DNA of 64,000 bases, from positions 10,995 to 74,994 of the IMG/VR virus record IMGVR_UViG_3300021963_008171. One strand, 5' to 3'. Within the stretch, counting starts at the first letter, position 1; every line of letters begins with the position of its first letter. Both the position numbers and the translations under genes were made by a program. The notes beneath the pieces are model-generated. The model had not been told where the DNA came from and ran no database searches. It saw only the letters and a list, made by a program, of their open reading frames with translations. This DNA comes from a virus. Lineage: Duplodnaviria; Heunggongvirae; Uroviricota; Caudoviricetes. Shown here one piece after another: positions 26,845 to 60,812 of the stretch.

Positions 26845-28470
26845 ATGAGCAAGTTATCAGAGTACGCGGTTAAGTCCAAAACAGAAATTAGAAAATACGA
26901 GGATCTAGTTGTTGAGAATTTTATGGGGGGTAATTCCTATAAATTGTCACCGCTACAAACACTTAAAATAGTAGCTGCTAGCTCGATCTTCGGGGAGCCA
27001 CAGTACTATAGAGATGGGATAAAGAAGCAGGCTTCGATAAAGAACCATGATACCCTATTGAAATACTCAATATTTGCTGGCCTTATAGAAGGCTGTACCT
27101 CCGCAGCGGACGTTTTTACGAACGCTATTGATGCAGCCTTAGATTATGACTTCAAGGGAACTTTAGACTTAGCTACGGAGCTAAGAATGGTGTTTTTTAT
27201 GAGATTAAACCCAGCCGTCATATTTATACGTGCTTCTATCCATCCAAAAAGAGCAGAATTCAATGGATCCAACCCAGGATACATGAAAACTGTGGGCAAA
27301 TCCATAGCACTTAGACCCGATGATTTAACAAATCAGCTTGAATATTTCATGTACGTGAACAAGACAAAAAGCAAATTAAGCTCCATTGTTAAAAGAACCT
27401 GGGCAGAAAGACTTGGAGAGTATTCAAGATATCAACTAAACAAATACAAAGGCAAAAGTCTAATTGATCTTGTTAGAATTTCACACGCTTGGAATAATGA
27501 TATAGATGAGCTAATGAAGACCGGATCTATCAAGGTTGAAGAATCTGAAAGAACATGGGAAAATTTAAGGTCGGAGGGCAAGACATGGAAGGAGATTCTA
27601 GAAGCAATCGAAATCCCTCACATGGCTCTTTTGAGAAATCTGAGGGGAATCTTCAAAGAAATAGAGGATTTGGAGATTGCTAAATCCGTCATGACAAAAT
27701 TATCGGCTGGTGTTACTAAGGGAAATCAATTTCCATTTAGATATTGGTCTGCATATAAAGCGGTAGAGAAAGAAGAAATAAATCATAAAGGAGTCATTCT
27801 TGATGGATTAGAGGAGTGCATGGACATTTCAGTACTGAATATGCCAAAGCTTGATGGAAAAACTATATGTCTTTCCGATAATTCAGGATCTGCCTGGGGT
27901 CAGTTATCATCAGAATATGGAACGGTTTATGCAGCAGAGATAGCAAATCTTTCTTCACTGATTACTGGAAAACAATCCGACGAAGGCGAAATAGGTTTAT
28001 TCGGAGATCGCCTTATTGTAGAGTCAGTTTCTAAAAGAAATGGACTTCTATCTCAGTTAAAAGCTATCAATGAGGTGGAGAGAGATCATGGTAAATTGGG
28101 GGGAGGCACAGAGAATGGGATTTGGTTGTTCTTCGATGATGCAATCAAGAGTAAAAAACATTACGATAACATTTTTATCTATTCTGATATGCAAGCTGGA
28201 CATGGTGGGTTATATGGAACAGATTCTTCAGAATATAAAGATTTCTTACATGGAGATTGGAGGCATATAGATGTTCTAGCTCTTGTTTCTAAATATAGGA
28301 AAGACGTGAATCCCAAGGTGAATCTATTTTCCGTTCAAGTTGCTGGATATGACAATACAGTATTGCCGGAGAATCTTTATAGGGGAGCTATTTTAGCAGG
28401 ATGGACGGGTAAAGAGCCAGTTTTTGCTAAGGCGTTAATCGACACCTGGAACGAAATAGAAAATCGATAA
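26845..28470 (+). CDS. rsr: Ro60-like ribonucleoprotein (TROVE domain + vWA with MIDAS)
   Basis: The N-terminus ...ENFMGGNSYKLSPLQTLK...FGEPQYY fits the TROVE start. The C-terminal ...CLSDNSGSAWG is a DxSxS MIDAS. 541 aa, Ro60 size. Confidence 0.6.
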   Translation: MSKLSEYAVKSKTEIRKYEDLVVENFMGGNSYKLSPLQTLKIVAASSIFGEPQYYRDGIKKQASIKNHDTLLKYSIFAGLIEGCTSAADVFTNAIDAALDYDFKGTLDLATELRMVFFMRLNPAVIFIRASIHPKRAEFNGSNPGYMKTVGKSIALRPDDLTNQLEYFMYVNKTKSKLSSIVKRTWAERLGEYSRYQLNKYKGKSLIDLVRISHAWNNDIDELMKTGSIKVEESERTWENLRSEGKTWKEILEAIEIPHMALLRNLRGIFKEIEDLEIAKSVMTKLSAGVTKGNQFPFRYWSAYKAVEKEEINHKGVILDGLEECMDISVLNMPKLDGKTICLSDNSGSAWGQLSSEYGTVYAAEIANLSSLITGKQSDEGEIGLFGDRLIVESVSKRNGLLSQLKAINEVERDHGKLGGGTENGIWLFFDDAIKSKKHYDNIFIYSDMQAGHGGLYGTDSSEYKDFLHGDWRHIDVLALVSKYRKDVNPKVNLFSVQVAGYDNTVLPENLYRGAILAGWTGKEPVFAKALIDTWNEIENR

Positions 28471-31861: not shown

Positions 31862-32764
31862 ATGAAAGTAATTTGGGTCCTAGAAAATATCAGGAAAGAC
31901 CATAAATTTTTTTTACCAGAAATAGAACTTCTTGGATTGATCGCTTCTATTTCTAATTGGAAATTACTGTATCCAGAAACAAACACGCATCTTTATTGTG
32001 ATTCCACAGTACTCGAATATCTAACCAAGATAGAAATATTAGATCTCTGGGATAACGTACACACAGAAGAACTTTGCACAGAGGACAAAATAAACAGAAG
32101 GGCTTTCTGGGCAGCTTCAAAAATTAAAATTCTAAGAAATATAGAGGCTCCTTTTATAATAATGGACTGTGATCTTTATTTTAAAAAAAGATCTCTAGAT
32201 CTTGATTCTTTTCAAAAATTTGACATAGTAACAAATCAGATAGAAGATGGATTGGGATACTATCCAACAAAGAGAGATCCTATTATAAAAGAAATGAATG
32301 ATCCTTTTAAATACAGATCCTCACACGCATTCAATGTTGCCTTTCTTTATATAGGCTGTGAAAAAATTAGAAGGGAATACACAAATTTAGCATATTCATG
32401 GATGGAAGATTTATCTTCAAAAAATCCAGACATTGGGATTTTAACCGGAAAGCATATGATTTTCTGTGAACAAAAGATGCTAAAGGAATTTTCAGATCTT
32501 TATGATTCTAAGGTAATATCCCTAGCAGATCATATGATAAAAGGAGCGGAAGAAAGAATACCTATGATGGATGGATATGAATCTTTAAATCTTAGAGATT
32601 CAGATTATGTGCATCTGCACAGATTAAAAAGCAGAGTTAAATTCAATTCCGGGCTGTTTATTGATACCAGAAGTGATATCATTAAATCTATATACAATCT
32701 AAGTCCAGAGAGATCTAAGAAAGCATTCTCAGCATTAAAGCTCTCTAATCAGGATCTATTCTAA
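31862..32764 (+). CDS. putative glycosyltransferase (Gly_transf_sug / DxD-type)
   Basis: ...AASKIKILRNIEAPFIIMDCDLYF resembles the sugar-binding DxD region of the OCH1/alpha-GalT family; weak. Confidence 0.35.
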   Translation: MKVIWVLENIRKDHKFFLPEIELLGLIASISNWKLLYPETNTHLYCDSTVLEYLTKIEILDLWDNVHTEELCTEDKINRRAFWAASKIKILRNIEAPFIIMDCDLYFKKRSLDLDSFQKFDIVTNQIEDGLGYYPTKRDPIIKEMNDPFKYRSSHAFNVAFLYIGCEKIRREYTNLAYSWMEDLSSKNPDIGILTGKHMIFCEQKMLKEFSDLYDSKVISLADHMIKGAEERIPMMDGYESLNLRDSDYVHLHRLKSRVKFNSGLFIDTRSDIIKSIYNLSPERSKKAFSALKLSNQDLF

Positions 32765-33380
32765 CCTTTCTTTTATCCGAAATGATGTAATCGTAAATTA
32801 CATCATTTTCTATTTCTACTCCAATATATTCTAGCATCCTTGCAATTTCTGAAATGTTATGGCCGACAAAAAGATCTTCATAATAAAATATAGGCCACGA
32901 ATTTTGTTCTGCTATTGAGGTCATTTTATAGGAAAAATATTTGAAAGATTCGATTTCATTCTTTAGTCTTTCCCGATCTATTTTATTTACATCATATATC
33001 TTAGGAATATCCCACCCAATCTTAGAATCTAGATTTATTAAAAGACTTTCTGCCTGTAATCCTTTATCTCTTCTATCCAAAACTATAACCTTATCAAAGA
33101 ATTCTTTCATCCAATCAGTAAATCTTCTTTCATCGTTTCCTGTCGATTTTTTGGGATGCTGGCTACATCCAAAAAGGGTTTTAGTTAATACCTGATCGTA
33201 TTTAAAAAAAGGATCTATATAATCAAAATCAAAACCTTCTTTATAATATGTAACGTAATTTTTTGGATTATATGGTTCATAGAAACATTGAAATCCCTTT
33301 GGATGTAAATGCGATTCCAACATTCTATATAAGGAGGTTGAACCTGTTCTTGGCCTAGCTAATATTGCTATTTTACTCAT
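32745..33380 (-). CDS. sulfotransferase
   Basis: N-terminal 5'-PSB-like ILARPRTGSTSL; 211 aa. Confidence 0.6.
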   Translation of the reverse strand: MSKIAILARPRTGSTSLYRMLESHLHPKGFQCFYEPYNPKNYVTYYKEGFDFDYIDPFFKYDQVLTKTLFGCSQHPKKSTGNDERRFTDWMKEFFDKVIVLDRRDKGLQAESLLINLDSKIGWDIPKIYDVNKIDRERLKNEIESFKYFSYKMTSIAEQNSWPIFYYEDLFVGHNISEIARMLEYIGVEIENDVIYDYIISDKRKVRIDPD

Positions 33381-33407
33381 TACATATCTATCCTAATGGT
33401 TTGGATA

Positions 33408-33989
33408 TCAAATTAATCTCTTTCCTGATTTCCCTCCTCTTAATTTATTCTGAGGATTTACTATGTTAATTTTAGGGGTAAACCCTAGATAAGATGCTAT
33501 TTTTTCACCTCCCGTGTTATTGAAATATAGATCTTCGTATGTTACCTGTATACAGTCCTTTAGTGATTTAAAATATTTATTTCTTATTACTATTGATTCG
33601 TGAACGGATCTTATCCTTTCCTCGTTATCCAATAGAAATTCGTTATTTATTTCATAATATGAAACGTCCCACTTATCATTAACTAAATTATTATGCCACC
33701 TATTATGAACGTTTGCCCAAACTACGCTTTCTGCTTGAGCCATAGAATCATTCCTTGTTAAAACTATTCTTTTATCAAAGAAATCCTTACCATTATCATA
33801 ACTCCATCTATTATCAGTTGATATCTTAACTATACACTCATTCATCTTTTCCAATTTAATTCCTTTAAAAAATTCCTCATGTTTAGGATTTAGCAACTCG
33901 TGATAATACGTTATACCGGTCTCAAGTTCTAACCATTCCCCCAGAGATCTTGATCCAGTCCTGTAGTCGGTGTATATTAATATTCTCAT
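33408..33989 (-). CDS. sulfotransferase
   Basis: ILIYTDYRTGSRSL; paralog of the neighbours. Confidence 0.6.
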   Translation of the reverse strand: MRILIYTDYRTGSRSLGEWLELETGITYYHELLNPKHEEFFKGIKLEKMNECIVKISTDNRWSYDNGKDFFDKRIVLTRNDSMAQAESVVWANVHNRWHNNLVNDKWDVSYYEINNEFLLDNEERIRSVHESIVIRNKYFKSLKDCIQVTYEDLYFNNTGGEKIASYLGFTPKINIVNPQNKLRGGKSGKRLI

Positions 33990-33992
33990 CTG

Positions 33993-34523
33993 CTATATCA
34001 ATTGTTTTTTCATATTTCTATATCTTTTAGATCCTATTTCGAATTTTGATTCAAATTCTAAATAATCCTCAATTTTCTTAAGACCCTCTTTTGAATAAAA
34101 TAATTCCTCATATGTTAAATGAAGACATTCTATTAATTTTTTAAATTCCACATTTTCAGAAATTATTTTATTTTCTATTTCTTTAATTTCTTGCTTGTTT
34201 GAATTTAAAAAATCATCCGATATAGAATATGCTGAAAATTTCTTTTCTTCTATTTCAGAATATAATCTACTTTCAGCTTGTTCCCTAGTATTTTCCCTTA
34301 CGAGAACTATTTTTTTATCGAACATATGTTTGATTCTATCATAAGAATCTTCGTCCGGGCAAACCTTGTATATTCCGAATGTGTGCGAATTCACAGCTTG
34401 GTCAAACTCATCGTTTGTTTTATAATGAAATCTTCTATAATAATCACAGCTATATTCTATCATCAAAAAGTTAGCTAATGATGTGGATCCTGTTCTATGG
34501 CTTGTGTATATTAATATTTTCAT
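33993..34523 (-). CDS. sulfotransferase
   Basis: ILIYTSHRTGSTSL; paralog. Confidence 0.6.
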   Translation of the reverse strand: MKILIYTSHRTGSTSLANFLMIEYSCDYYRRFHYKTNDEFDQAVNSHTFGIYKVCPDEDSYDRIKHMFDKKIVLVRENTREQAESRLYSEIEEKKFSAYSISDDFLNSNKQEIKEIENKIISENVEFKKLIECLHLTYEELFYSKEGLKKIEDYLEFESKFEIGSKRYRNMKKQLI

Positions 34524-35346
34524 TGATGTGCTTTAATATATTATTTGCAATCTCCTCATGCCCACTATAGCTTGGATGATAATCAACAATTTTACCATTT
34601 GTATCGTGCATAATAGTGTGCTTATCTTTGCGTATTTTATATGATATTCCATTATCGCCATCGGAAATTAAATTTTTTGGCTTCTCGCAACATTTAGGCC
34701 AGTAGTCTTCGTGTAGGATAAAAACATTAAATCCTATATTTAAGAGAATTTCATTTATTTGTATAAATCTCCAAACCTCCCTCTCGTAATATTTTTTGGT
34801 TGATATGAATTCTAAAAAAAAGTCTTGCATTAAATCATACTTTTTTTTAGATAATTTTAAATTTTCATTACGTAAATATTGCCCGGTGTTTGTATAGAGT
34901 AAGGTGTCTTCTCCCCCGTCCTCATAACTCTTGATTATATTATTAATAAAGACGGTTTTTAAGAAATATGGAGATTGATTATCGGGATCATATAAAAAAT
35001 CTCTAGGCTCAATGCACCACCCACCCAGGAGCTTTTGCTGTTTAACTAAGGGGAAGTCATATCTAGCGCTAGTCGATATTTGAATTATGATAATATCGTC
35101 TTTTTTAAAATTATTAAACTCCTTTAATATTCTATCTAAAATAGAATCGTTTGTTGACCCATTTACGCCATAGTTTAAAATATCAAATCCGATTTTTTCT
35201 GCTACATGTTCCGCCCATATTTTTTTTGTTGGATCGATATAATCAAGATATTTTGAATTGTAAAATGATTTAGGATCGCCCGACTTATCCTCTTTGCATC
35301 CGTGTCCCCACGTAAAACTGTCACCAAAAGCCCAGAGTTTACTCAT
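34495..35346 (-). CDS. SGNH/GDSL hydrolase
   Basis: N-terminal LWAFGDSFTWGHG (GDS(x) block I). Confidence 0.6.
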   Translation of the reverse strand: MSKLWAFGDSFTWGHGCKEDKSGDPKSFYNSKYLDYIDPTKKIWAEHVAEKIGFDILNYGVNGSTNDSILDRILKEFNNFKKDDIIIIQISTSARYDFPLVKQQKLLGGWCIEPRDFLYDPDNQSPYFLKTVFINNIIKSYEDGGEDTLLYTNTGQYLRNENLKLSKKKYDLMQDFFLEFISTKKYYEREVWRFIQINEILLNIGFNVFILHEDYWPKCCEKPKNLISDGDNGISYKIRKDKHTIMHDTNGKIVDYHPSYSGHEEIANNILKHINENINIHKP

Positions 35347-35930
35347 ATTAATTTTTTTTCAAAATTTAAAAAAGAAAACATATTATAATATTTTCTATCC
35401 TCTTTAATCATATTCATCATAATACCATATTGGTCGGGATAAGTACTTTTAATATAATTTTTAATATAATTAGGGCTCCTCCATATATTAAATTCTTTAA
35501 AATTATATCTATCTTTATCGTATGGTTTCATTTTTCCCTCGAGAGATAAAAACAAAGTTAGATCTTTCAGTCTTAAAGCAATCGGCTTTTTATCCTTGGA
35601 TAAATAGGCCTCAAAAATAGTTCTATTCAGAATCCCACACCAGTGTGTTGACCCTAATTCAGAAACAAACAGGTTAATTAATTCTTCCTCCGTAATTCCT
35701 TCCCAGTTACTATGATTGTTCCACAAGCTTAAAATCTCTGTGTGTAGAGCACTATTTAGATGATCCTCAGGGTCTCTTAATATTATAACCCCCCAATTCA
35801 AATTCTTAAATTCGTCCCATCCGGCATCGAGCATAATTACTCCTTTTGTTTCTCCCCCGAAGGATCTTAAATATCTCGTTCCACACTTTAACGGTGTTAT
35901 AAATCTATTATCGATTTGTATTATCGTCAT
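35343..35930 (-). CDS. sulfotransferase-like protein
   Basis: TPLKCGTRYL resembles the PAPS 5'-phosphosulfate-binding loop. Confidence 0.4.
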   Translation of the reverse strand: MTIIQIDNRFITPLKCGTRYLRSFGGETKGVIMLDAGWDEFKNLNWGVIILRDPEDHLNSALHTEILSLWNNHSNWEGITEEELINLFVSELGSTHWCGILNRTIFEAYLSKDKKPIALRLKDLTLFLSLEGKMKPYDKDRYNFKEFNIWRSPNYIKNYIKSTYPDQYGIMMNMIKEDRKYYNMFSFLNFEKKLI

Positions 35931-36596
35931 TTAAATACTTTAAAAAATATTCACATTGAACTAATTGGCCTATCTCACCGAATTGATCGTCATTTAGCTC
36001 GTTTTTTGTTTCTTCCTTAATAGTCTGAGCACCAATTTTTTTAAGATGATTGTACAGATCTGTTACATCCCCTCCTATGTAATATGGCTTGTGTATTTTT
36101 TTATCAAACGTCCAATAATAAACTTTAAACCCTATAGATCTAGATAATAGATTAATTAGATTTTCCCAGCTAAATATTTCATCGAGCCACGACTCGTTGA
36201 TCCTATTATCGTGCAATTCCTTTATTGTTGTTAAATTAATACCGCTCAAAAACTCTGGGGTATTCACATGTTTTAATACATACGGTCTAGATGTAACAAC
36301 TCCCCATTATATTGATTAACTATTCTAAAATTTTGAATATCGGACCAACCAATAATGACAATATCTTCTTTCTTAATCGATGCAGAGAGTTTACAGAACC
36401 ACTCAAATATATCATAGTTAGATTGTCCTCCTATAGCATAATTTTTTAAACCAAGATTTAATTTTTCAGAAAGAAGCTCTGACCACGACTTAGGAAATTT
36501 TCCGGACCTGTATTGATTGTAATAATGATATCGACGCTCTTTCGTCTTTCCGAATATAGCGGAAGAATTATCTCCGAATATCCATAAATCGCTCAT
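35908..36596 (-). pseudogene. SGNH/GDSL hydrolase split by a frameshift (ORFs 36273..36596 and 35908..36267)
   Basis: The N-terminal part MSDLWIFGDNSS matches the neighbours. The two ORFs abut in different frames and sum to the neighbour size (232 aa). Confidence 0.35.
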
Positions 36597-37291
36597 AGTA
36601 ATTTTACTTTTTTGGTATTATCATAGGATTTAATTAGATCATAAAGATATTCAGACATTTGTCTATTTCCATTTTCACTGAAATGCATATCATAGATTTC
36701 GCCGTTTGTTTCTTCGAATATGGTTTCTATTTTTTGCTTTATCGGCGTAACAAACAATCCTCCTTCTTCCTGTTTAAATGGAGACCAATTAATTATAATA
36801 TTATCCGGATATATGTGATTGATTAATTTAATATATCTATTAATCTCGTCAACATATGGAAGTTCGCACCTATTAACAATTATTTCATTTAATGCGTCCA
36901 CACTAATGTCAGTTAAATAACTTGTATCAGATATTGTGGATATCAACTGCGAATCTTTGTCTTTGTTATTTAAATTATCTGGCCTAATTGTTAAAAAACT
37001 GCCATTCCTTGAAGCTACTCTAAATCTAATCGTAGACGACCATCCGATAATTATGATGTCTTCCCTATCGATTTTATTTAAACTATCAATTATAGAATCC
37101 ATGATGGTATAATTGTCTGCTCCGCCTATTCCCAGGTTTCTAGAAGGCATTCCCAGTTTTGCAGACAAAAAATCAGAAAATACCTTCGGAACATATTTTT
37201 TCCAATTGATATAATCCCTCCTCCATTTTACTAAAAATCGTCCTTCGTTTGTTTCTGAGAACGAATCACCAAAGATCCATAGTTTTGGCAT
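36593..37291 (-). CDS. SGNH/GDSL hydrolase
   Basis: MPKLWIFGDSFSETNEG. Confidence 0.55.
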   Translation of the reverse strand: MPKLWIFGDSFSETNEGRFLVKWRRDYINWKKYVPKVFSDFLSAKLGMPSRNLGIGGADNYTIMDSIIDSLNKIDREDIIIIGWSSTIRFRVASRNGSFLTIRPDNLNNKDKDSQLISTISDTSYLTDISVDALNEIIVNRCELPYVDEINRYIKLINHIYPDNIIINWSPFKQEEGGLFVTPIKQKIETIFEETNGEIYDMHFSENGNRQMSEYLYDLIKSYDNTKKVKLL

Positions 37292-37424
37292 AAAATTACC
37301 AGTTAGGAATGCTTATTTCTTATTGCTGTAAATATTGTGCTTAGTATAGCTAAGCAGACAGTTTTGTCTGAAGCCTGTACTTGAGTTGGTGTGGATTTGT
37401 CTAATAATTTTGCCATTTTTTTTA

Positions 37425-38825
37425 TTATTTTTCTGGGACGAAGTTGTGTGTTATTACGCTACCTAGTAGATTAACCCCGGTAATTCCGTTTAAATCTGTA
37501 CCTGCTACAAATACGTCATCAGGCTCTATGTTTATTGTTGTGATATTACCGTTGTACCATTCTAAATTTATTGAATTTATGTCAGCAACAATTTCATCTG
37601 AGATTACAATTGAATCTGTGTCCTCTATATCACTTGCTATTTTGAATTTAACGATGCCTGTGTTTTTTTCCCTAATTAATAGTTTTTCGTTTGGAGTTAC
37701 CAGTGTACTTCCGTTTAATGATCCATTGGAATATTCTATTCTTGGAAGCCAACCCTGAAATGTTGAGGTTAATTTATTAATAACAGATGCTGAAGAATAC
37801 GTGATTAACTCAGATATTGATAAAGATGATGACCAATTTAAACTCTCTGTTGAAAGTTCGTCTTTATTTAAACCTGATATAGAAATAGATTTAATTACAT
37901 CTCCTATATCAATGGAGTTTAAATCAATGGAAATTTCCTGATCTTCTACAATTTTAATAACCTCGTATTCGCTGGGTGTTCCCGTAGAATTCATGGGATT
38001 TGAGAAATACATAGACCTCCATTTATTGTCTAATTTATTATCTGTATATGTTATTTCAGTTTCCGCTAGTGGTACTGTGTTAGAATAAACACATCCCCCC
38101 ATATCAATAATGGTTTCAGCATCCTCTAATAATAGCGTCCATGTTCTGATCACGTTTGAAATTTTCCCATTTTCTAACGTATTTTCGTCAAATCTATATT
38201 CCTGCAGCATACTTGTACCATCTAGTGTAGATTTTAAATTTGACAGATTCGTTTCATTGTCTATTTTATAAAATGCGGGATATTCATTTTTTTCAAAATC
38301 TGGCAGTATTTTTTTAGCTATAACGTTAGGATTTAAACCGTTATCTATTAATTCGTTTAGATTATCAAATGTAACATTATCATCTGGGTGTAAAAGACAC
38401 GTTTTGGGTAAAATTCCCTCATTGTTTGATTCAAATAGCAATTTTACCATTTCAGACTTATCCCTGCAATAAAGATCGTCTATGATGGCAGTTAAATCAT
38501 ATGCGCATCTCAGATAAAATGTACTTTCGTCTACAACTATAGAAGGTGTAGTCAAGCTATTATTTGGAACTACAATTAACTCCAGTATTATGCTGTTATT
38601 GTCACAAAAATCTTGAAACTTAGAAATAGCAGACTGTGAAATGTGCTTTTTTTTGTAAACTAGTATTAGCTTAGTATACGAATTAGACGTCAAATATGTC
38701 ATTAAATTATCCAATTCTAGAAATTCGATAGTTGTGTGAAAAAGATCAACATCTGTGTTTGTTTCTAAGAATTTTATGTCGTTTTCCAATTTTAAAAAAT
38801 CGGATCCTATTAATACTGCTTTCAT
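37425..38825 (-). CDS. hypothetical protein (466 aa)
   Basis: Long ORF with no recognised motif. Confidence 0.5.
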   Translation of the reverse strand: MKAVLIGSDFLKLENDIKFLETNTDVDLFHTTIEFLELDNLMTYLTSNSYTKLILVYKKKHISQSAISKFQDFCDNNSIILELIVVPNNSLTTPSIVVDESTFYLRCAYDLTAIIDDLYCRDKSEMVKLLFESNNEGILPKTCLLHPDDNVTFDNLNELIDNGLNPNVIAKKILPDFEKNEYPAFYKIDNETNLSNLKSTLDGTSMLQEYRFDENTLENGKISNVIRTWTLLLEDAETIIDMGGCVYSNTVPLAETEITYTDNKLDNKWRSMYFSNPMNSTGTPSEYEVIKIVEDQEISIDLNSIDIGDVIKSISISGLNKDELSTESLNWSSSLSISELITYSSASVINKLTSTFQGWLPRIEYSNGSLNGSTLVTPNEKLLIREKNTGIVKFKIASDIEDTDSIVISDEIVADINSINLEWYNGNITTINIEPDDVFVAGTDLNGITGVNLLGSVITHNFVPEK

Positions 38826-38835
38826 ATATTGTTTT

Positions 38836-39417
38836 TTATAAATATTTATTTTTTCTCTCCATTATTTTTTCTTTCAATAAAAATGGAATCTTTTCTTCGA
38901 TACTAAAGGTTTCGTCGTTATATAATAGATGAAAATCGTCTAAAAACTCAGTTTTAAAATTGGTAATATTTCCGTACGATAAATACCAGCTATCAATTGT
39001 AACAGATTCATCGTATGTTCTATCCCTATTTTTAACCCTATTAATACACACGTCCAGCGGCGCATATAGCATAAACATTATGGTTTTGTATCCATTAATA
39101 TTCAACTTTTTGCGCTGTTTCCTTATAGAATCTATATATCTACCAACTGTATCGATGACTATATTATCCCCATGGGCTATAGCTTCTAAAAATGTATTAT
39201 AACTAATATCCTTTGCACTCTCGAAAAACTTAGAAGCCTGTCCTGCCTGATCCTCGCTGAAATCTGTTATTTTAACCCCCATCCCCGAGCCTTTTAATAG
39301 TTTTTCGTATGGGATGTCAACATTAATCTTCTTAAAAGAACTAAAATATCTATCGGAAAATGTAGTTTTACCACTTCCCCCAGAGCCACAAACAAAGACT
39401 GCTATCTTATCTTTCAT
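38836..39417 (-). CDS. P-loop kinase/NTPase
   Basis: FVCGSGGSGKTTFS Walker A. Confidence 0.5.
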   Translation of the reverse strand: MKDKIAVFVCGSGGSGKTTFSDRYFSSFKKINVDIPYEKLLKGSGMGVKITDFSEDQAGQASKFFESAKDISYNTFLEAIAHGDNIVIDTVGRYIDSIRKQRKKLNINGYKTIMFMLYAPLDVCINRVKNRDRTYDESVTIDSWYLSYGNITNFKTEFLDDFHLLYNDETFSIEEKIPFLLKEKIMERKNKYL

Positions 39418-39874
39418 TTACCCATTTTTTTATTGATTCAATATCCTCATTGTGTTTAATTAGTTCTGGCTCTGTTTCTAGTATCCATAATTTATCCTTT
39501 AGAATAAATTCAGGCTTTAAAACCCTTATTGAGTAACCCCCGGATGATATCGTGTTAAAAATGTTTTCTACGTAATTAACAAACAAGTGAAATTCCCCGC
39601 ATTTGTTTTTATTAAATCCGGTGTATACCTCAAAATTAAATCCAAGATCCTGGTTGACTATTAAATCACCCCGATACAATCTAAATTTCCTTTGTAAAAT
39701 ATTTTCGTAAATGTCCCAATCTTTTTTTAAAATATTAAGATCTATATCAGAAATATCTCTACTTATTACCCCTTGTAGATTTAAGCTTAAAGATCCTCCG
39801 ACAATTATATTACCCTCTGTGATACTGTAAATTTCTTTGAATATCTCCTCGTAGGGTCCGTGTAGTTTAATCAT
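39407..39874 (-). CDS. minimal nucleotidyltransferase (NTase fold)
   Basis: VGGSLSLNLQGVISRDISDIDLNI fits hG[GS]-x(9-13)-DhD. Confidence 0.45.
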   Translation of the reverse strand: MIKLHGPYEEIFKEIYSITEGNIIVGGSLSLNLQGVISRDISDIDLNILKKDWDIYENILQRKFRLYRGDLIVNQDLGFNFEVYTGFNKNKCGEFHLFVNYVENIFNTISSGGYSIRVLKPEFILKDKLWILETEPELIKHNEDIESIKKWVNER

Positions 39875-40422
39875 ATTAATGTCTTTTTAAATCCACCAGA
39901 TCCTTTAAGAGAAACCCAATTGACCAAAGAATATCTGATCCCGCTAATAACAGGGGTTACCCTGTGTGGTGTGTCGGAATAAAAGATCAATAAGGTTCCT
40001 GTGTTAACATTTGGAGTTGTTAAATTACCATTATCGTCTTTGAATTGTAGATATCCCCCGTCATAATCATTATTGAGTACGATTACAACCGAACAATATC
40101 TTTCTCTGTAGACATCGTCTGAAGAATCTGTATGCCAATTATAATATTCATCGGGTTTGTATTCAGTAAATTGATATCTACCTAGATTTGTTAATTCGTG
40201 TCCCTTAACATTCATGGTTTTTCTTAGAATTTCCTTTAATCTATCATCTAAACCATCAATCTTATCTATAAATCCCACTGATGATTTTCTAGCGTTAGAA
40301 ATACCAGAATTTGCCACTTTTGCTGCGGTTAGATTCAATTCAGTTTTATACTTTATTATACATTCGAAACATTCATCCTCTGTTAAAAATCCACAAAAAA
40401 CTTGAACGTTCCTATTCATCAT
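39871..40422 (-). CDS. 2OG-Fe(II) oxygenase (prolyl 4-hydroxylase-like)
   Basis: ...WHTDSSDD...HRVTPVISGIRYSLVNW (HxD...H...R). Confidence 0.6.
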   Translation of the reverse strand: MMNRNVQVFCGFLTEDECFECIIKYKTELNLTAAKVANSGISNARKSSVGFIDKIDGLDDRLKEILRKTMNVKGHELTNLGRYQFTEYKPDEYYNWHTDSSDDVYRERYCSVVIVLNNDYDGGYLQFKDDNGNLTTPNVNTGTLLIFYSDTPHRVTPVISGIRYSLVNWVSLKGSGGFKKTLI

Positions 40423-40633
40423 TCATCTTTTTTAGTCCGTATTTAATACATTTGTACCATATTCTTTCGTGCAAATAGTATTGAATGGGTTTCCACAGGA
40501 GCTCTGCAACACCAAAGGCTGCCCCAATCTTTATTGATCCGGTTACTATCCACATTGTTAAAAATCCAATCGTAGTACTAAGCACCCTATAGCTAATTGT
40601 TTTTGCTATGTGTCTCTTTTTCTCTACTATCAT
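40412..40633 (-). CDS. small membrane protein (DUF2061-like)
   Basis: 73 aa with two TM segments. DUF2061 is found fused to or next to APS kinases; from memory. Confidence 0.35.
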   Translation of the reverse strand: MIVEKKRHIAKTISYRVLSTTIGFLTMWIVTGSIKIGAAFGVAELLWKPIQYYLHERIWYKCIKYGLKKMNDE

Positions 40634-40653
40634 ATATTATATGTGTATAAAAA

Positions 40654-41031
40654 CTATCCTTTGCTTACGTCATATTTTATAGACCCATCAGCTGACATAT
40701 GACCAGTTCTTATAGCAGTACCGCTTATTGCTCCTACCTCTGCTGGCGGTTCATGGTAAATCACATCATATCCTACTCCCCTTCCATAATTAACACTTTC
40801 TATATCAGGTATAACGGAGATAAAAAGTCTCCCGGTTTGTAAATAATCGTTCAGTTCGATTTTTAATTCATCAAAAACTTGCAATGCAGATTTTGGATTG
40901 TTTTCGTCTTGCGGTACGTCTCTAATTGCGACCCAGACATTCTTCCCCTGACTAAATTGCTGATCTATTAACCACTGGTGTCCTTTGTGCCAGTTTTGCC
41001 ATCTTCCGATGTATAACGCGTATTTTTTCAT
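40654..41031 (-). CDS. minimal HxGH nucleotidyltransferase (cytidylyl/adenylyl-transferase fold); candidate sulfate adenylyltransferase
   Basis: YIGRWQNWHKGHQWL ((H/T)xGH motif) and C-terminal ISGTAIR (ISxTxIR motif). The start overlaps the APS kinase stop (ATGA). Confidence 0.5.
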   Translation of the reverse strand: MKKYALYIGRWQNWHKGHQWLIDQQFSQGKNVWVAIRDVPQDENNPKSALQVFDELKIELNDYLQTGRLFISVIPDIESVNYGRGVGYDVIYHEPPAEVGAISGTAIRTGHMSADGSIKYDVSKG

Positions 41032-41465
41032 ATAGATTCTAGACCCAAAATACTGATAAGTTCCTCGAACGATTCATTCAGATCATCACCATTTACAAAT
41101 GCCTTATAATTATCAACGGGCAGCTCAAATGCTTGTACATGGAGTTTATCCTTTCCTGAGAAATGCGGCCTATTAAACAGTATCTCAGTGACCTCGTTAT
41201 TCGCTTTTAAATCCTCCCTAATTGCACGATAAGGACAAACCATACTTATCACTACATCATATCCTTTTTGGCTCATAAAACGAGCTATTGTAAAGGATCT
41301 TTCTATGTTTCTAATTCTCCCCGAATATGAATAATCAGTATTTGGAAATATCTCTCTTAAATCGTCGCCGTCTATCCAAATTGTTTTTTCGCCCAATCTT
41401 TCTACGAGCATACTAGACATTTGGGTTTTTCCTGTGCCAGGCTGCCCGATAAACAAATAAATCAT
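41028..41465 (-). CDS. cysC: adenylyl-sulfate kinase (APS kinase)
   Basis: FIGQPGTGKTQ P-loop followed by WIDGDDLR (the LDGDNxR APS-binding motif); 145 aa. Confidence 0.65.
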   Translation of the reverse strand: MIYLFIGQPGTGKTQMSSMLVERLGEKTIWIDGDDLREIFPNTDYSYSGRIRNIERSFTIARFMSQKGYDVVISMVCPYRAIREDLKANNEVTEILFNRPHFSGKDKLHVQAFELPVDNYKAFVNGDDLNESFEELISILGLESI

Positions 41466-41694
41466 ATATTTTTAAATTAATGGTTATATGTGAACGGATC
41501 TCTTTTTCTGATCTCCTCTATTTTCTTCATGAACTCCTTCTTTTTCCTTCTTTTTTCGAAGTAATCCTTGATCCAGTTTAGTATCTTTTTCATCTTAATA
41601 GTTATATTGATTATATATTTTAAGTTTCCCCCTTCCTGGCGGTAACTATTTCGGAATTTTATCCAATTTTACTCTAAAATATTAAAATAGAAAT

Positions 41695-42918
41695 ATGGTT
41701 TGGAATTACCAAGATACAGTGCTAGTTCATGTGGAACTTTCCAATCTTTGCAATGCTGCTTGTCCCCTTTGCCCAAGATATGTAAACAATTCGTTAAGGG
41801 TCAATCCAGAATTGGACTTGGGCAGCGTTTCTTTTGAGGATTTTAAAAAATGGTTCCCTCTAGAATTTGTACAAAAAAGTAAAGGATGGATATTCTGCGG
41901 TACTAATGGCGACCCCATGATGGCTAGAGACGTGTATGAGATATTAGAATATGTTCTCAGAAATTCGACTGCTAAGGTCCAGGTCAACACTAACGGTTCC
42001 ATAAGAGACGGGGAATTTTGGGAAAAAATAGGATCTTTATTTGCCGAGCCCTGTGAAAATAGCAGATATGTTGTTTTCTCTGTTGATGGACTGGAGGACA
42101 CGAACCACATCTACAGAAGAAACGTGAAATGGGAGAGGGTGATGGAAAATATGAGAGCCTATGCAAAATCAGGATCTACTGGTATTTGGGACTTTCTAAT
42201 ATTCAAGCACAATGAGCATCAGCTAGAGGAGGCTGAGCTTCTCTGCAAAGAAATAGGTCTAGCATTTTCTCCAAAAAGACCCTTTGGGTTTGAAACGGGA
42301 AATCCTGATGAATACCAGGACTTAATGGTTTATGACATGGAAGGAAATTTTTTATACAAGATAGAGCCGGCCAGCGAGGAGTGGAGATTAAATAGATCCA
42401 TGAATAAATTTGAGAGAGGAGAGGAAAAAATATGGATTCCGGGAAAGGGGAAAAGAACAGATGATGAAATCAAAGAAAAGTGGAATGGACTGATCGAGAG
42501 GGATCTTCCTAAATATAAATTCCCGGAAAGATTCAAAGAAAAATCAGTTAGTTGCAAATCTTGCCATCCTATCGGGAAGGAAATTTATGTTGATTGTAAG
42601 GGAAATGTTATGCCTTGCTGCTTTGTTGGAACAATGTACAACAGTGACTTTCAACACCACGAGGCATTACAGATAAAAAAACATTTATGGGACTGGGGAT
42701 TGGATAAAATAAATCTGAATAATCATTCTCTCAAAGATATACTAGATAGCAAATATCTAGATGAGGTTTTTGCCAACCGCTGGGAAGGAGCTAAGGATGA
42801 GGATAAAATGGGATATTGCTTTAACACATGCTCGGTTGATCACATGAAAGATCTTTTTGTCAGAAAGGAAAATCTACCAATTTCTTCAGAAAAATCAGGC
42901 AAAAAAAGTCTTATCTAG
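41695..42918 (+). CDS. radical SAM / SPASM-domain enzyme
   Basis: CNAACPLC (Cx3Cx2C) near the N-terminus; C-terminal Cys cluster CKSCHP...CKGNVMPCC. Confidence 0.65.
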   Translation: MVWNYQDTVLVHVELSNLCNAACPLCPRYVNNSLRVNPELDLGSVSFEDFKKWFPLEFVQKSKGWIFCGTNGDPMMARDVYEILEYVLRNSTAKVQVNTNGSIRDGEFWEKIGSLFAEPCENSRYVVFSVDGLEDTNHIYRRNVKWERVMENMRAYAKSGSTGIWDFLIFKHNEHQLEEAELLCKEIGLAFSPKRPFGFETGNPDEYQDLMVYDMEGNFLYKIEPASEEWRLNRSMNKFERGEEKIWIPGKGKRTDDEIKEKWNGLIERDLPKYKFPERFKEKSVSCKSCHPIGKEIYVDCKGNVMPCCFVGTMYNSDFQHHEALQIKKHLWDWGLDKINLNNHSLKDILDSKYLDEVFANRWEGAKDEDKMGYCFNTCSVDHMKDLFVRKENLPISSEKSGKKSLI

Positions 42919-42945: not shown

Positions 42946-45441
42946 ATGAACGATAAGATAAATTTAGTCTATGACGATTGGCCTCTTGATCAGGAAAGGC
43001 CGAATCCCAATGGAGATAAATATTTTCCAGAAGCAAATGCCTGGATGACTGGTGATGGTCCGATGGAGACTCTTCGATACTGCAATTACGTCAACCGAAG
43101 AATGGAAGATGTCGACAAGTACCAGGAGGAAAATTTCTTTTATGTTGTTTGGCATCGACATTCTCTCTATGACAGATTTTTGTATTTTGACAGACTTCCA
43201 ATAGGTGATGATATGATAGGGGCTTTCCAAAGAAAGCCAAATCTTTATCTTCTTTTAATAAACGATCAAGAGATAGAGCCTATAGAAACTATAAGCAAAC
43301 TTGATCTCGCTCTAGAAAGAAATAATATAGATCCAAGAAAGGTTTTTGTAGTTAACAACAATTCTAGAAATTGGGAATATAAAAAAGAATTGGGGAGTAA
43401 TATTAATGTTCATAGTACGAGGGCAATGCCTCTAGCATTGGCTAAAATTCCCAGAAGTAATTTCGTAGAGAATAAAGAAGGGCATTTTTTCATGTCACAC
43501 AACCATTCTTTAAGAGAAAGCAGATCCGCGTTTGTGTGTCTCTTAAAAAAATATGGACTGATCGATGATTTTGATTGGTCTTATTTGAAGCTCTGGAGAC
43601 TACCTGGTGAGGATTGGATAACTATCTATAGAAGAATATTCAACGATTCCGATATGGAATTCATGATGCCAGAAATAGAATATTTTAATTCTTATGGTAT
43701 TAAGAAAAGCAATTACGAGTCACATTTTCCGTGGCTTGATGAAATGACAACTAATAGTCCTTCTTGGTGGGAAACATTTAATTCACAGCAGTACGAGAAT
43801 ACCTATTTTAATGTAACTGTGGAAACACAATATTTTGGAAGGGACCTTCACATAACAGAAAAGTCATTTAAACCCTTTATCCATCTGCAGTTTCCTATGA
43901 TTCTTGCCTCCAGACATCATATAAAACATATGCGGGAGTATTACGGGTATGATTTTTTCGATGATGTGATTAACCACGATTATGATAACGTCGTAAGTGA
44001 TAGAGATAGAATCTTTAGGTTCATAGAAGAACTAAAAAGAATTCAGGAGAATAAAGAATTCTTTATCGATTTTTATAAAAATAACAAGGAAAGATTTCGG
44101 AGGAATCAAGAAATGGTTTATCAATTCACCAATGAATATGATGCTAGCTATTTCAGGGCATTGACAAAATTTGATCACCCAAAGAAAACCCTTAATCTTG
44201 TTTATGATAATTGGGATACCCAAACTAATCGCCCATTAAGAGGCAATTCTGAAGATCTTTACCTAAGTACATTCCACATGAATGTTGACAGTGTAGTTGG
44301 ATCCTTACAATTTGATAGAAGATTAATCAGAAGATATAGATTGGAAGATGTTCCTAAGATAAAAAATGAGACATTCTTTTATTTTGTCACCTTAATTCCT
44401 GGCATCCTAGCGGAGAATTTAAGATCTGGAAAACTACCAATAAATAGAGATGCTATCAACATGCTCAAGAATTATTCAAACTTTAATGTGATAATAATGA
44501 ATGAGCAGGAAGCAGAAAGAAAAGAAACACTGGTTCTTCTTGATAAATGGTCCAAAGAATCCGGCTTAAATCAGCAACAAATTTGGTTTTCTAATAACAA
44601 CCCAAGACTACAAGAATTCAAAGAGGAAATAGGAACTGATATAAATGTTCATTCGACAGTTAGACTTGCTAATTTCACAGCAAATTCTGTTATACATTCA
44701 GTGGGAAGGGTGGAGTTCAAGTCTGAGAAAGACGGGGAATTTTTCATGTGTCACAATAGAAGGCCAAGACCGCATAGATATGGTTTACTATGCTTGCTTA
44801 AAAAGAGCGGGGTTTTAGATGATGTTGATTGGTCTTTAGTTCAAGGGTTTCAGTTCAAGGGAAATAAGCACCCTGAATCCTTCTTTAGAACAATATTTAA
44901 CGATGAAGATATAGAAAACATGAGAGAAGAAATTGAGTACTTCTCTAACATAGAACAAAAGAAAAGTAGATACGAGGAAGAAAGAACATGGTTCGATGAT
45001 AGGGAAAATGAAAATAATGTTCCTTGGAATGAAACCTATGATAAAAATCAGTTGGAAAATTCATATTTCAATATCACAACAGAAACTGAATTTTCATCAG
45101 ATCTGACACACATATCAGAAAAATCTTTCAAAGCTTTCTGTGCAATGCAGTTTCCCATGATTCTTGCATCTGCTCACCACATCAGAGAAATTAAAAAGAA
45201 ATATGATTTTGATTTTTTTGATGATGTGATCAATCACGATTATGACGACGAAGAGAATCACAGAGACAGACTTTTTAAATTTGTAAAAGAGATAAAAAGA
45301 ATAAACGACAACAAGGAGTTCTTCATAGAATTTTATAAGAACAACAAATTTAGATTCGAGGAAAATCTTAGAAAAATAGAGGAGAAAGTAAAGGATCAAT
45401 CAGATTCTGACTTTTTAAAAAGAATATCTGGTATAATATGA
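42946..45441 (+). CDS. internally duplicated protein (two ~400-aa homologous halves), possible glycosyltransferase
   Basis: FPMILASRHHIKHMREYYGYDFFDDVINHDYDN (half 1) versus FPMILASAHHIREIKKKYDFDFFDDVINHDYDD (half 2). Also KINLVYDDWPLDQERPN versus LNLVYDNWDTQTNRPL. Confidence 0.55.
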   Translation: MNDKINLVYDDWPLDQERPNPNGDKYFPEANAWMTGDGPMETLRYCNYVNRRMEDVDKYQEENFFYVVWHRHSLYDRFLYFDRLPIGDDMIGAFQRKPNLYLLLINDQEIEPIETISKLDLALERNNIDPRKVFVVNNNSRNWEYKKELGSNINVHSTRAMPLALAKIPRSNFVENKEGHFFMSHNHSLRESRSAFVCLLKKYGLIDDFDWSYLKLWRLPGEDWITIYRRIFNDSDMEFMMPEIEYFNSYGIKKSNYESHFPWLDEMTTNSPSWWETFNSQQYENTYFNVTVETQYFGRDLHITEKSFKPFIHLQFPMILASRHHIKHMREYYGYDFFDDVINHDYDNVVSDRDRIFRFIEELKRIQENKEFFIDFYKNNKERFRRNQEMVYQFTNEYDASYFRALTKFDHPKKTLNLVYDNWDTQTNRPLRGNSEDLYLSTFHMNVDSVVGSLQFDRRLIRRYRLEDVPKIKNETFFYFVTLIPGILAENLRSGKLPINRDAINMLKNYSNFNVIIMNEQEAERKETLVLLDKWSKESGLNQQQIWFSNNNPRLQEFKEEIGTDINVHSTVRLANFTANSVIHSVGRVEFKSEKDGEFFMCHNRRPRPHRYGLLCLLKKSGVLDDVDWSLVQGFQFKGNKHPESFFRTIFNDEDIENMREEIEYFSNIEQKKSRYEEERTWFDDRENENNVPWNETYDKNQLENSYFNITTETEFSSDLTHISEKSFKAFCAMQFPMILASAHHIREIKKKYDFDFFDDVINHDYDDEENHRDRLFKFVKEIKRINDNKEFFIEFYKNNKFRFEENLRKIEEKVKDQSDSDFLKRISGII

Positions 45442-50421: not shown

Positions 50422-50429
50422 AGTCTAAA

Positions 50430-55430: not shown

Positions 55431-55441
55431 GATTTCTGTTT

Positions 55442-60725: not shown

Positions 60726-60737
60726 CAAATTTTATAT

Positions 60738-60812
<75 letters not shown>

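Follow-up and report, generated by a model that had tools for sequence, protein, structure and literature searches.

We describe an uncultured large phage that carries 15 genes tightly packed into a single operon on the minus strand, at positions 32745-41465 of the window (the whole stretch of DNA analysed here, 64,000 nucleotides); taken as a whole, this is probably a virus-encoded sulfation operon. The pathway that we propose has four steps. In the first, a 125-aa HxGH adenylyltransferase would adenylylate sulfate to give APS, acting as a compact, non-canonical ATP sulfurylase; in the second, for which homology is the guide, a short-lid APS kinase translationally coupled to it would phosphorylate the 3′-OH of APS to give PAPS, the universal sulfate donor, and would pull the unfavourable first step forward, with a DUF2061 membrane protein assisting or anchoring the nucleotidyltransferase-kinase pair. 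Three small sulfotransferases, judged from fold and motifs, would then move sulfate from PAPS to different positions, on one acceptor or on related acceptors. In the last and least certain step, the acceptor would be made or processed by the remaining genes of the operon – those for an ATP-grasp/Hint protein, a 37-aa peptide, a Zeta-like kinase, a putative nucleotidyltransferase, SGNH proteins, and a 2OG oxygenase – together with genes of an adjacent glycan-gene island. A preliminary description of this DNA had proposed an operon combining PAPS supply with multiple sulfotransferases; its core idea of a PAPS-supply module beside several sulfotransferases stands, and its gene inventory is revised here.

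Organization of the operon

Every gene that had been listed earlier is present at its position on the minus strand, and the junctions are very tight: four are ATGA overlaps, other overlaps span 11-29 bp, and the largest gap is no more than 27 bp. The earlier count of about fourteen genes omitted two of the 15: the gene for a 466-aa protein at 37425-38825, which is the largest, and a conserved 37-aa ORF (37303-37416). The sole sizeable non-coding gap is the 229 bp divergent intergenic region (41466-41694) between the operon and a plus-strand radical SAM/SPASM gene. It is the presumed promoter region, and a consensus promoter scan of it scored no better than shuffled sequence. A glycan-gene island adjoins the operon.

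Genes for proposed sulfate activation

The product of 41028-41465 (145 aa) is a P-loop kinase, proposed here to convert APS to PAPS, and its earlier designation as an APS kinase is supported by a match to Pfam APS_kinase (PF01583; E=5e-10; 39.9 bits, gathering score 21.1) and by a PDB search in which all of the best 18 matches are APS kinases. It scores below the 138.7-bit equivalog cut-off of TIGR00455 (40.9 bits) and below the cut-off of 127 for NF004041 (50.8 bits). The Walker A P-loop (GQPGTGKT) and IDGDDLR, the DGDxxR Mg/APS motif, align with those of canonical enzymes, and the alignment also contains Y-S..GR..N and PY..R, such that the P-loop, DGDxxR, aromatic-S..R..N, and PY..R motifs are all shared with canonical CysC (TIGR00455, PF01583). 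The canonical APS kinase lid closes over APS, and it is here that the two differ: where CysC has the segment KGLYKKARAGEIKxFTGI, the window kinase has a stretch about 20 aa shorter, with the full mobile lid (KGLYxxARxGxIxxFTGIxxPYExP) absent and the terminal (Y/F)ExP retained. Cellular short-form kinases have the same shortened lid, and in Marinimicrobia, marine group III archaea, and Thaumarchaeota such a kinase takes the place that full-length CysC has in other loci; similar short kinases are found, too, where the HxGH nucleotidyltransferase is absent. These sequence comparisons support placing the window kinase within the APS-kinase lineage, as a member with a short lid.

The kinase gene is ATGA-coupled to 40654-41031, which encodes a minimal NMNAT-like HxGH adenylyltransferase (125 aa) that we propose forms APS from sulfate and ATP. 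Its previous identification as an HxGH nucleotidyltransferase is confirmed by matches to TIGR00125 (E=5e-5) and, for the family profile, to archaeal NMNAT (E=9e-12). Among solved structures its nearest relatives are NMN adenylyltransferases rather than ATP sulfurylases, and the family shares with archaeal NMNAT (MJ0541, NadM family) the GRxQPxHxGH and ISxTxIR motifs; the window protein has GRWQNWHKGH and NYGRGVGY, and IRD and PDIxSxNxGRxVGY are invariant and family-specific. Membership of the ATP sulfurylase families (Sat, CysD/CysN) was considered and rejected, as the signature motifs are missing: the window protein has neither QxRNPxHxxH nor GRDHAG of Sat, nor the PP-loop of CysD with the GTPase of CysN, and has no match to Pfam ATP-sulfurylase (Sat PF01747), for which one fused relative (P0043) gives a marginal match (E=0.098). 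ATP sulfurylase is nonetheless a member of the same HxxH nucleotidyltransferase superfamily, and the window protein would share with NMNAT and, at that level, with Sat a class of chemistry in which the alpha-phosphate of ATP is attacked by an oxyanion.

The genomic context of the family points to APS. Among 78 cellular (bacterial and archaeal) loci, 68 have an APS kinase partner, either fused (19), adjacent (42), or one gene away (7), with full-length partners scoring 166-258 bits on the apsK equivalog TIGR00455 (cut-off 138.7). Of the best 150 family representatives, 33 are fusions to APS kinase, and both domain orders occur. In Nitrospiraceae there is no kinase within two genes of the nucleotidyltransferase, and the gene upstream encodes an Fe-S APS reductase (2goy, E=2.5e-59). 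Sulfotransfer_5 (E=8e-48) and Sulfotransfer_3-like proteins and polysaccharide genes are frequent neighbours, and none of the 1,071 neighbouring genes within 8 kb at 80 loci carries a signature motif of Sat, CysD, or CysN.

This context bears on a different reading, in which the operon does serve sulfation while its nucleotidyltransferase has a role other than that of an ATP sulfurylase: the host CysDN or Sat would provide APS, the virus would add the kinase and transferases, and the nucleotidyltransferase would adenylylate an acceptor or an NMN-like compound, or recycle a by-product. It draws on the NMNAT structures and absent Sat motifs noted above, on JGI records that name some relatives 'nicotinamide mononucleotide adenylyltransferase', and on size, as we know of no ATP sulfurylase this small. 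Against the NMNAT equivalog (TIGR01527/NadM; cut-off 181.2), however, the window protein scores only 16.7 bits and its relatives 36-57, and the family is 40-55 aa shorter than NMNAT and, unlike it, is partnered by APS kinase and APS reductase rather than NAD genes. The neighbours nearly always consume APS, the fusions occur in both orders, none of the 80 loci offers a canonical sulfurylase motif nearby, and a dedicated kinase lacking an APS source of its own would depart from the NodPQ and RaxPQ arrangements considered below. We regard provision of APS by the host as unlikely, and infer from genomic context that the HxGH nucleotidyltransferase would make APS and so complete the PAPS supply. 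The PAPS supply had earlier been called self-contained with no ATP sulfurylase named and the nucleotidyltransferase treated as unrelated; it is this protein that context now offers as the candidate.

The third member of the proposed sulfate-activation module is the 73-aa DUF2061 small membrane protein encoded at 40412-40633 (Pfam PF09834, E=5e-16; 59.2 bits, passing the gathering score of 23.1). Its gene comes after that of the HxGH nucleotidyltransferase in most viral loci, and DUF2061 is fused to the nucleotidyltransferase in one relative (P0024) and to APS kinase in Chitinophagaceae.

Predicted sulfotransferases

Three genes, at 33993-34523 (176 aa), 33408-33989 (193 aa), and 32745-33380 (211 aa), encode small proteins with an RTGS(T/R)SL loop, one fewer than the four tandem paralogues counted previously. 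The 193-aa and 211-aa paralogues are 34% identical and share both PAPS-binding motifs. All three belong to an unannotated family of at least 496 proteins, known only from metagenomes and found on viral contigs, in which R10-T-G12-S13 and R76...E84-S85 are invariant among 59 members; we take the RTGS loop and R..QAES (R76...E84-S85) to be the 5′-phosphosulfate- and 3′-phosphate-binding motifs, as in Stf0 and Sulfotransfer_3 enzymes. The window proteins differ from mycobacterial Stf0 and other Sulfotransfer_3-type bacterial sulfotransferases in length (176-211 aa versus about 240-270) and are about 13% identical to them.

Of the 59 members, 17 match Pfam Sulfotransfer_3 (E≤0.05, best 2e-6) and six match Sulfotransfer_1; the window proteins themselves lie below Pfam gathering scores (best 22.4 bits versus 27), the 211-aa paralogue matching Sulfotransfer_3 (E=1.7e-4) over the N-terminal loop only. 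The best matches of the AlphaFold model of the family are sulfotransferases, which is the fold predicted for the RTGS proteins. We also considered whether they could be degenerate P-loop kinases or other nucleotide-binding proteins, with the kinase and nucleotidyltransferase serving nucleotide or NAD metabolism, as NadR does. This is very improbable: the loop has no Walker lysine and R..QAES presumably fits a 3′-phosphate-binding motif, none of the 59 members matches a kinase family, the sulfotransferase alignments are longer (152-157 residues versus about 130), and the same activation module is found together with bona fide sulfotransferases both in cells and in a crAss-like phage. Fold and motifs support the three as predicted PAPS-dependent sulfotransferases.

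A further protein (35343-35930; 195 aa) had been described as divergent sulfotransferase-like. The likeness holds at the level of motifs, PLKCGTRYL and ILRDPEDHLNSAL being kept in three orthologues, and does not extend to Pfam, PHROGs, NCBIfam, hhalign, or PDB searches, which gave no sulfotransferase support.

The module recurs among viruses: about 20 IMG/VR viral contigs carry it, as do a crAss-like phage and Xylella/Stenotrophomonas phages. In approximately 16 of 22 viral loci, RTGS sulfotransferases are encoded no more than 10 kb from the nucleotidyltransferase-DUF2061 pair, whether or not the short kinase is present; in about half of the related viral loci the nucleotidyltransferase and DUF2061 occur with no short kinase within 10 kb. 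Orthologues of the 211-aa paralogue directly follow the kinase-nucleotidyltransferase pair at five loci (L009, L011, L012, L016, and L019). In the crAss-like phage a Sulfotransfer_2 gene (E=5.5e-7) is immediately upstream of a fused kinase-nucleotidyltransferase gene, and in Xylella phage Sano a weak Sulfotransfer_4-like gp33 is two genes upstream of the fused gp35.

Genes for the putative acceptor

HMM searches substantiate two further earlier assignments, as they do that of DUF2061: a P4H-like 2OG-Fe(II) oxygenase (39871-40422; 183 aa; 2OG-FeII_Oxy_3 E=3e-15; phrog_61 E=2e-30) and a Zeta-toxin-like/AAA_33 P-loop kinase (38836-39417; 193 aa; Zeta_toxin E=8e-9; AAA_33 E=7e-8), whose orthologue profile matches Zeta toxin 1gvn (E=3e-5). 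2OG or AspH-like oxygenases also flank the activation module in Chitinophagaceae and phage DLP6. Beside the Zeta-like kinase, in a conserved position, 39407-39874 encodes a possible minimal pol-beta-type nucleotidyltransferase (155 aa). Its previous listing as a minimal NTase survives as a motif, G-S ... D-x-D being invariant across 10 orthologues, and finds no support in HMM or PDB profile searches (DUF6036, E=0.07).

The 466-aa protein of 37425-38825 joins an ATP-grasp ligase domain to a probable Hint (intein/Hedgehog-like) domain, a fusion that to our knowledge has not been described. It may be compared with ATP-grasp acid-amine ligases (YgiC, GspS, RimK, LysX) and with bacterial intein-like (BIL) and Hedgehog Hint domains, from which it differs in that a conserved N-terminal Cys/Ser nucleophile is not evident. 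The Hint domain ends in an invariant His-Asn, followed in relatives by a second Hint domain or an S74-like chaperone domain. Directly after this gene is the conserved 37-aa ORF (37303-37416; C-terminus ..IFTAIRNKHS), and of 14 related loci, 12 have an ORF in the corresponding position (consensus C-terminus LQILFAAI(R/K)AKHS).

Three SGNH/GDSL hydrolases, one frameshifted, had been reported, and the three proteins are SGNH-like. The 283-aa protein (34495-35346) matches Lipase_GDSL (E=6e-7) at 30.2 bits, above the gathering score of 23.6, and conserves GDS and D-Y-H; the 232-aa protein (36593-37291; E=0.002) is below it at 18.7 bits, with GDS and D-x-H conserved in orthologues. The frameshift in the third (35908-36596) is a single T deleted at window position 36299 relative to a 99.97% identical contig (L005) with an intact 229-aa gene. 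Where related loci possess this paralogue, it comes after the small ORF. All orthologues have GDN for GDS, lacking the nucleophile Ser, and the block V catalytic His is missing from the window copy and most orthologues.

Because the ATP-grasp/Hint protein and the 37-aa ORF form the centre of conserved synteny, a peptide-linked or peptide-derived acceptor is a serious alternative to a glycan. The ATP-grasp enzyme would load or lengthen the 37-aa peptide at its C-terminal ..KHS, which is invariant, and LysW/LysX carrier systems, RimK, and RiPP ATP-grasp enzymes are models for this; tailoring of the product would fall to the kinase, oxygenase, and sulfotransferases, its release would fall to the SGNH hydrolases, and Hint would self-process. 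The main alternative, a product built up on the small peptide, is a real possibility that we place short of even; we give about an even chance to the acceptor being a glycan or glycoconjugate presented on the infected cell or virion.

Discussion

Dedicated PAPS synthesis tied to a pathway-specific sulfotransferase is established for rhizobial NodP/NodQ with NodH and Xanthomonas RaxP/RaxQ with RaxST. The raxX-raxSTAB cluster has been described (PMC6637879). Common to these systems and the phage operon is a dedicated sulfate-activation pair encoded beside one or more PAPS-consuming sulfotransferases. However, NodPQ and RaxPQ use a CysD/CysN-type ATP sulfurylase and a full-length CysC domain, whereas here the pair would be a 125-aa NMNAT-like nucleotidyltransferase and a kinase with a truncated lid, partnered by DUF2061, with three or four sulfotransferases, and in a virus.

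The preliminary description considered this combination unusual for a phage-like element. A viral sulfotransferase alone is not unusual, because viral proteomes already include proteins annotated as sulfotransferases, but the combination of a PAPS-supply module with sulfotransferases on a virus is. The HxGH nucleotidyltransferases at its core are an uncharacterised family that may represent a new kind of sulfate-activating enzyme.

Organization of the operon

The minus-strand genes between 32745 and 41465 – 15 genes represented by 16 ORFs, one gene being split – are closely packed, with four ATGA overlaps, other overlaps of 11-29 bp, and a largest gap of no more than 27 bp. A consensus scan, which performed no better than on shuffled sequence, reported no minus-strand terminator-like site within 32745-41465, and both the promoter and terminator scans were uninformative, being indistinguishable from shuffled sequence. 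Given the tight junctions and the lack of an internal terminator-like site, we therefore treat 32745-41465 as one operon. It is bounded by a 229 bp divergent intergenic region (41466-41694), and its GC content (0.30-0.32) is lower than that of its flanks (0.35-0.38). A short lysine-rich ORF, MKKILNWIKDYFEKRRKKKEFMKKIEEIRKRDPFTYNH, lies on the operon strand within 41466-41694, upstream of the operon.

By homology or fold, the operon encodes an APS-kinase-like kinase, sulfotransferase-fold proteins, SGNH proteins, a 2OG oxygenase, and an ATP-grasp/Hint protein. HMM searches bear out much of a preliminary description of these genes: the proposed APS kinase (41028-41465) matches APS_kinase (E=5e-10), the DUF2061 gene matches DUF2061 (E=5e-16), the 2OG oxygenase matches 2OG-FeII_Oxy_3 (E=3e-15), the P-loop kinase matches Zeta_toxin/AAA_33, and, of the SGNH/GDSL hydrolases, the 283-aa gene matches Lipase_GDSL, with a weaker match for the 232-aa gene. 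The middle SGNH gene, described as frameshifted, is indeed split in the window, where one T is missing from a T run at 36299, but it is intact (229 aa) in ENA k141_1586432, an 85.5 kb metagenome contig with 99.97% identity to the window across 13.4 kb. A second homopolymer indel lies at 30418; assembly or sequencing error, or strain variation, probably accounts for both.

Two further assignments drew no support from any search: a 155-aa minimal nucleotidyltransferase, with a suggestive, conserved G-S...D-x-D motif, and a 195-aa divergent sulfotransferase, with conserved and likewise suggestive PLKCGTRYL and RDPEDHLNSAL motifs. For the 195-aa protein, hhalign comparisons with the RTGS sulfotransferase family and with a crAss-like phage sulfotransferase were negative, as was a PDB profile search, and we have set its assignment as a sulfotransferase aside. 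The largest gene (37425-38825, 466 aa) and the 37-aa ORF behind it had not been listed.

A nucleotidyltransferase family associated with APS kinases

The 125-aa HxGH nucleotidyltransferase (40654-41031, minus strand) belongs to a sizeable family (786 clusters at the 50% identity level), for which annotation goes no further than ‘cytidyltransferase family’ or ‘kinase’. Its nearest sequence relative is the archaeal NMNAT (E=9e-12), but the family falls far under the NMNAT equivalog cut-offs, is shorter, and has its own invariant motifs; R37/D38 is invariant, and a GRxVGY motif is present. Among the best 150 representatives there are 33 APS-kinase fusions; homologues are fused in both orders to full-length APS-kinase domains (e.g. 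P0043 and P0025, with APS_kinase matches of E=1e-58 and E=2e-43), and the PHROGs family phrog_10255 (‘kinase’) spans kinase and nucleotidyltransferase as a single protein. Another homologue, P0024, is a fusion with DUF2061.

A scan of cellular genomes, using one genome per species, yielded 80 loci from Marinimicrobia, Bacteroidota, Omnitrophota, Planctomycetota, Nitrospirota, Acidobacteriota, Thaumarchaeota, Poseidoniales, and Methanosarcinales, with the nucleotidyltransferase gene callable in 78. Of these 78 loci, 19 carry it as a fusion with an APS kinase, 42 have it directly next to one, and seven have it one gene away; all of the full-length partner kinases tested (166-258 bits) score above the curated apsK equivalog cut-off of 138.7. 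Three Nitrospiraceae loci (L081, L082, and L086) have no kinase within two genes of the nucleotidyltransferase. Immediately upstream of it in L081 is an Fe-S APS reductase, which matches 2goy (E=2.5e-59) above any PAPS reductase and retains the CC...CxxC cysteines; the corresponding genes in L082 and L086 are of the same size (264-265 aa), with identity examined in L081 alone.

In Chitinophagaceae (L088, L093, L094, L100-L106, and L108), the bona fide APS kinase begins with a fused DUF2061 domain, and the nucleotidyltransferase and a Sulfotransfer_3-like gene come next, an arrangement that provides DUF2061 with a predicted functional context in PAPS synthesis. In Marinimicrobia, polysaccharide genes recur near the nucleotidyltransferase, as does a Sulfotransfer_5 gene (E=8e-48). 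A crude regular-expression test for Sat, CysD, and CysN signature motifs found none in the 1,071 genes of the cellular loci.

The HxxH nucleotidyltransferase superfamily also includes ATP sulfurylase. Because the partner is nearly always an APS-using enzyme and the superfamily is shared with ATP sulfurylase, the simplest reading is that the family makes APS, which we infer from genomic context and homology. A literature search returned no account of this nucleotidyltransferase as a sulfurylase, nor of any DUF2061 function.

A short-lid APS-kinase-like protein

The adjacent 145-aa kinase (41028-41465, minus strand) has APS kinases as all of its best 18 PDB matches, with the alignment confined to the N-terminal 90 residues. 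It misses the NCBIfam cut-offs by a wide margin, which the alignment attributes to a lid approximately 20 residues shorter; the P-loop, DGDxxR, Y-S..GR..N, and PY..R motifs are kept. Short forms of 141-158 aa are also present in Marinimicrobia, marine group III archaea, and Thaumarchaeota, where they occupy the exact genomic slot of full-length CysC in relatives, and the short kinase is also found without the nucleotidyltransferase. We treat the window kinase as a member of a short-lid APS-kinase subfamily, with APS as its presumed substrate. The nucleotidyltransferase would supply APS and the short-lid kinase would form PAPS, with DUF2061 as a putative accessory protein.

Predicted small sulfotransferases

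The tandem paralogues with an RTGS loop are three in number, rather than the four proposed previously: 176 aa (33993-34523), 193 aa (33408-33989), and 211 aa (32745-33380), all on the minus strand. Their family has at least 496 members, all metagenomic, every one of them ‘hypothetical’ and almost none with a Pfam domain. Sequence and profile searches of the family against the PDB gave no significant match, PHROGs has no match for any SGNH or sulfotransferase-like gene of the operon, and the family assignment was resolved by structure prediction only. There is no Walker lysine in the RTGS loop, the proteins share a second invariant motif (R...QAES), and the family matches Sulfotransfer_3 in 17 of 59 members and Sulfotransfer_1 in six, with no match to kinase families in any of the 59. 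Together, these features separate a sulfotransferase from a kinase reading, and, since sulfotransferase families are matched, the earlier proposal passes the check set for it. The RTGS proteins are assigned to the sulfotransferases at the superfamily level, with the window proteins themselves below Pfam thresholds.

The ATP-grasp/Hint protein and the 37-aa ORF

The 466-aa protein (37425-38825, minus strand) received no sequence-level annotation in HMM and PHROGs searches and has at least 187 well-conserved relatives; its predicted model (pLDDT 84.5) has two domains, ATP-grasp and Hint. An invariant His-Asn closes the Hint domain throughout the family; the sequence beyond it is variable and takes one of three forms: 1-7 residues (FVPEK in the window), a K-C-x-W-S-G-F-C linker and second Hint domain, or an S74-type ‘SDxRLKENI’ chaperone domain. 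The 617-aa tandem-Hint relatives (L009 6464-8317, L010 5839-7689, and L011 5961-7814, in viral or metagenome loci) conserve K-C-x-W-S-G-F-C between a first Hint ending in HN and a second beginning with CF, a layout through which a short Cys/Trp peptide could be excised. Six of nine tandem-Hint loci and the S74-type locus contain a flavin Trp-halogenase gene, which is absent from all five short-form loci, the window included.

Directly after the ATP-grasp/Hint gene is the 37-aa ORF (37303-37416, minus strand; MAKLLDKSTPTQVQASDKTVCLAILSTIFTAIRNKHS). This position holds an ORF in 12 of 14 related loci; its C-terminus, LQILFAAI(R/K)AKHS, is near-invariant, and it could encode a carrier or precursor peptide. 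Of two candidate sulfate acceptors, one is a peptide-linked product, to which the invariant association with the ATP-grasp/Hint gene and small ORF points, as do the halogenase, SPASM, and oxygenase genes in relatives.

Adjoining genes

The other candidate acceptor is a glycan, which three features of the gene context favor. An island of approximately 20 kb adjoins the operon and includes epimerase/dehydratases, two GT7 genes, a GT2 gene, a methyltransferase, and radical SAM genes; the cellular modules also have a polysaccharide context, and glycosyltransferases lie beside the sulfotransferase in L009. Genes of the glycan-type island at 45438-57011 encode a fusion of an SDR epimerase/dehydratase with a 2OG oxygenase, another epimerase, two radical SAM proteins, a GT2, a methyltransferase, and two eukaryote-like GT7 proteins (beta-1,4-galactosyltransferase family), one with a Laminin_G_3 domain.

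Between the operon and 45438-57011 are a plus-strand radical SAM/SPASM gene (41695-42918), which BLAST ruled out as a relocated orthologue of the radical SAM gene in the L009 operon, and an 831-aa plus-strand ORF (42946-45441) composed of two tandem units of approximately 415 aa with no Pfam match. Single-unit relatives of the latter are present in viral loci L022, L023, and L027.

Recurrence in viral genomes

The contigs related to the window are IMG/VR viral genomes, and the ‘phage-like’ label given to the element earlier is reasonable. Together with metagenome contigs, and at lengths of up to 235 kb, they retain two gene blocks: the first contains the short kinase, the nucleotidyltransferase, a 205-aa sulfotransferase, and DUF2061, and the second a putative nucleotidyltransferase, a Zeta-like kinase, ATP-grasp/Hint, the small ORF, SGNH(229), an optional 195-aa protein, SGNH(283), and the 176-aa sulfotransferase. 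In about 16 of 22 viral loci, no more than 10 kb separates the nucleotidyltransferase-DUF2061 pair from RTGS sulfotransferases, and the short kinase is present in eight viral loci, including the window. In an independent case, the gene immediately upstream of a fused kinase-nucleotidyltransferase in a crAss-like phage is a Sulfotransfer_2 gene.

The kinase-nucleotidyltransferase fusion is also present in cultured phages of Xylella, Xanthomonas, and Stenotrophomonas, annotated just as ‘kinase’. In Xylella phage Sano (NC_042344, 4567-6336), gp35 (‘kinase’) comprises an APS-kinase-like domain and the nucleotidyltransferase, and gp33, encoded two genes upstream, has sulfotransferase-like motifs (PRSRSAW and HRPAREVAHS) and a weak Sulfotransfer_4 match (E=4e-4). 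The same module may therefore go unrecognized in cultured phages. Nucleotide and protein comparisons of the operon and the large window ORFs with 50,697 phage records recovered nothing except the nucleotidyltransferase and a TROVE gene, and the large ORFs have no detectable similarity to cultured phages.

The TROVE/Ro60-like RNA-binding protein (26845-28470, plus strand) shares 50% identity with Bacillus phage G gp540; Rfam gave no Y-RNA-like match anywhere in the window. A tmRNA at 60314-60728 (plus strand), missed by ARAGORN, is a full-length RF00023 match in Rfam (80.4 bits, E=1e-29). Directly behind it is a tRNA-Met (60738-60812), the sole RNA gene reported there by ARAGORN.

Discussion

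In functional terms the operon resembles NodPQ/NodH and RaxPQ/RaxST, in which a dedicated PAPS supply accompanies a pathway sulfotransferase, but every component differs: the candidate sulfurylase is non-canonical, the lid of the kinase is truncated, DUF2061 is a partner, and the sulfotransferases are miniature. The operon is also viral. A viral sulfotransferase alone is not new, and viral proteins so annotated already exist; our literature search found no description of a phage PAPS-plus-sulfotransferase operon.

The most far-reaching interpretation, to which we give somewhat less than even odds, is that the 125-aa HxGH protein stands for a minimal kind of sulfate adenylyltransferase that has so far gone unrecognized and is evolutionarily nearer to NMNAT than to either Sat or CysDN. 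Together with DUF2061 and an APS kinase (or APS reductase) it would constitute a sulfate-activation module in many Marinimicrobia, Bacteroidota, Omnitrophota, Planctomycetota, Nitrospirota, marine archaea, and several phage lineages. Here it would feed a family of unannotated mini-sulfotransferases, and these would decorate a product that an ATP-grasp/Hint enzyme builds on a 37-aa ribosomal peptide. That a new enzyme class is revealed is plausible, and in our judgment stops a little short of probable.

To our knowledge, APS formation in the sulfur cycle is performed by two enzyme types only, Sat and CysDN. If the nucleotidyltransferase makes APS, it would be a third and very small solution, currently missed by genome annotation. 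The capacity for sulfate assimilation and sulfation would then be inferred differently for abundant marine lineages, DUF2061 would gain a functional context, and a PAPS generator as compact as two genes would find use in biocatalytic sulfation. The family of at least 496 ‘hypothetical’ proteins would be sulfotransferases, and phages would bring a complete sulfation toolkit, implicating sulfated molecules, whether secreted or on surfaces, in phage-host interactions.
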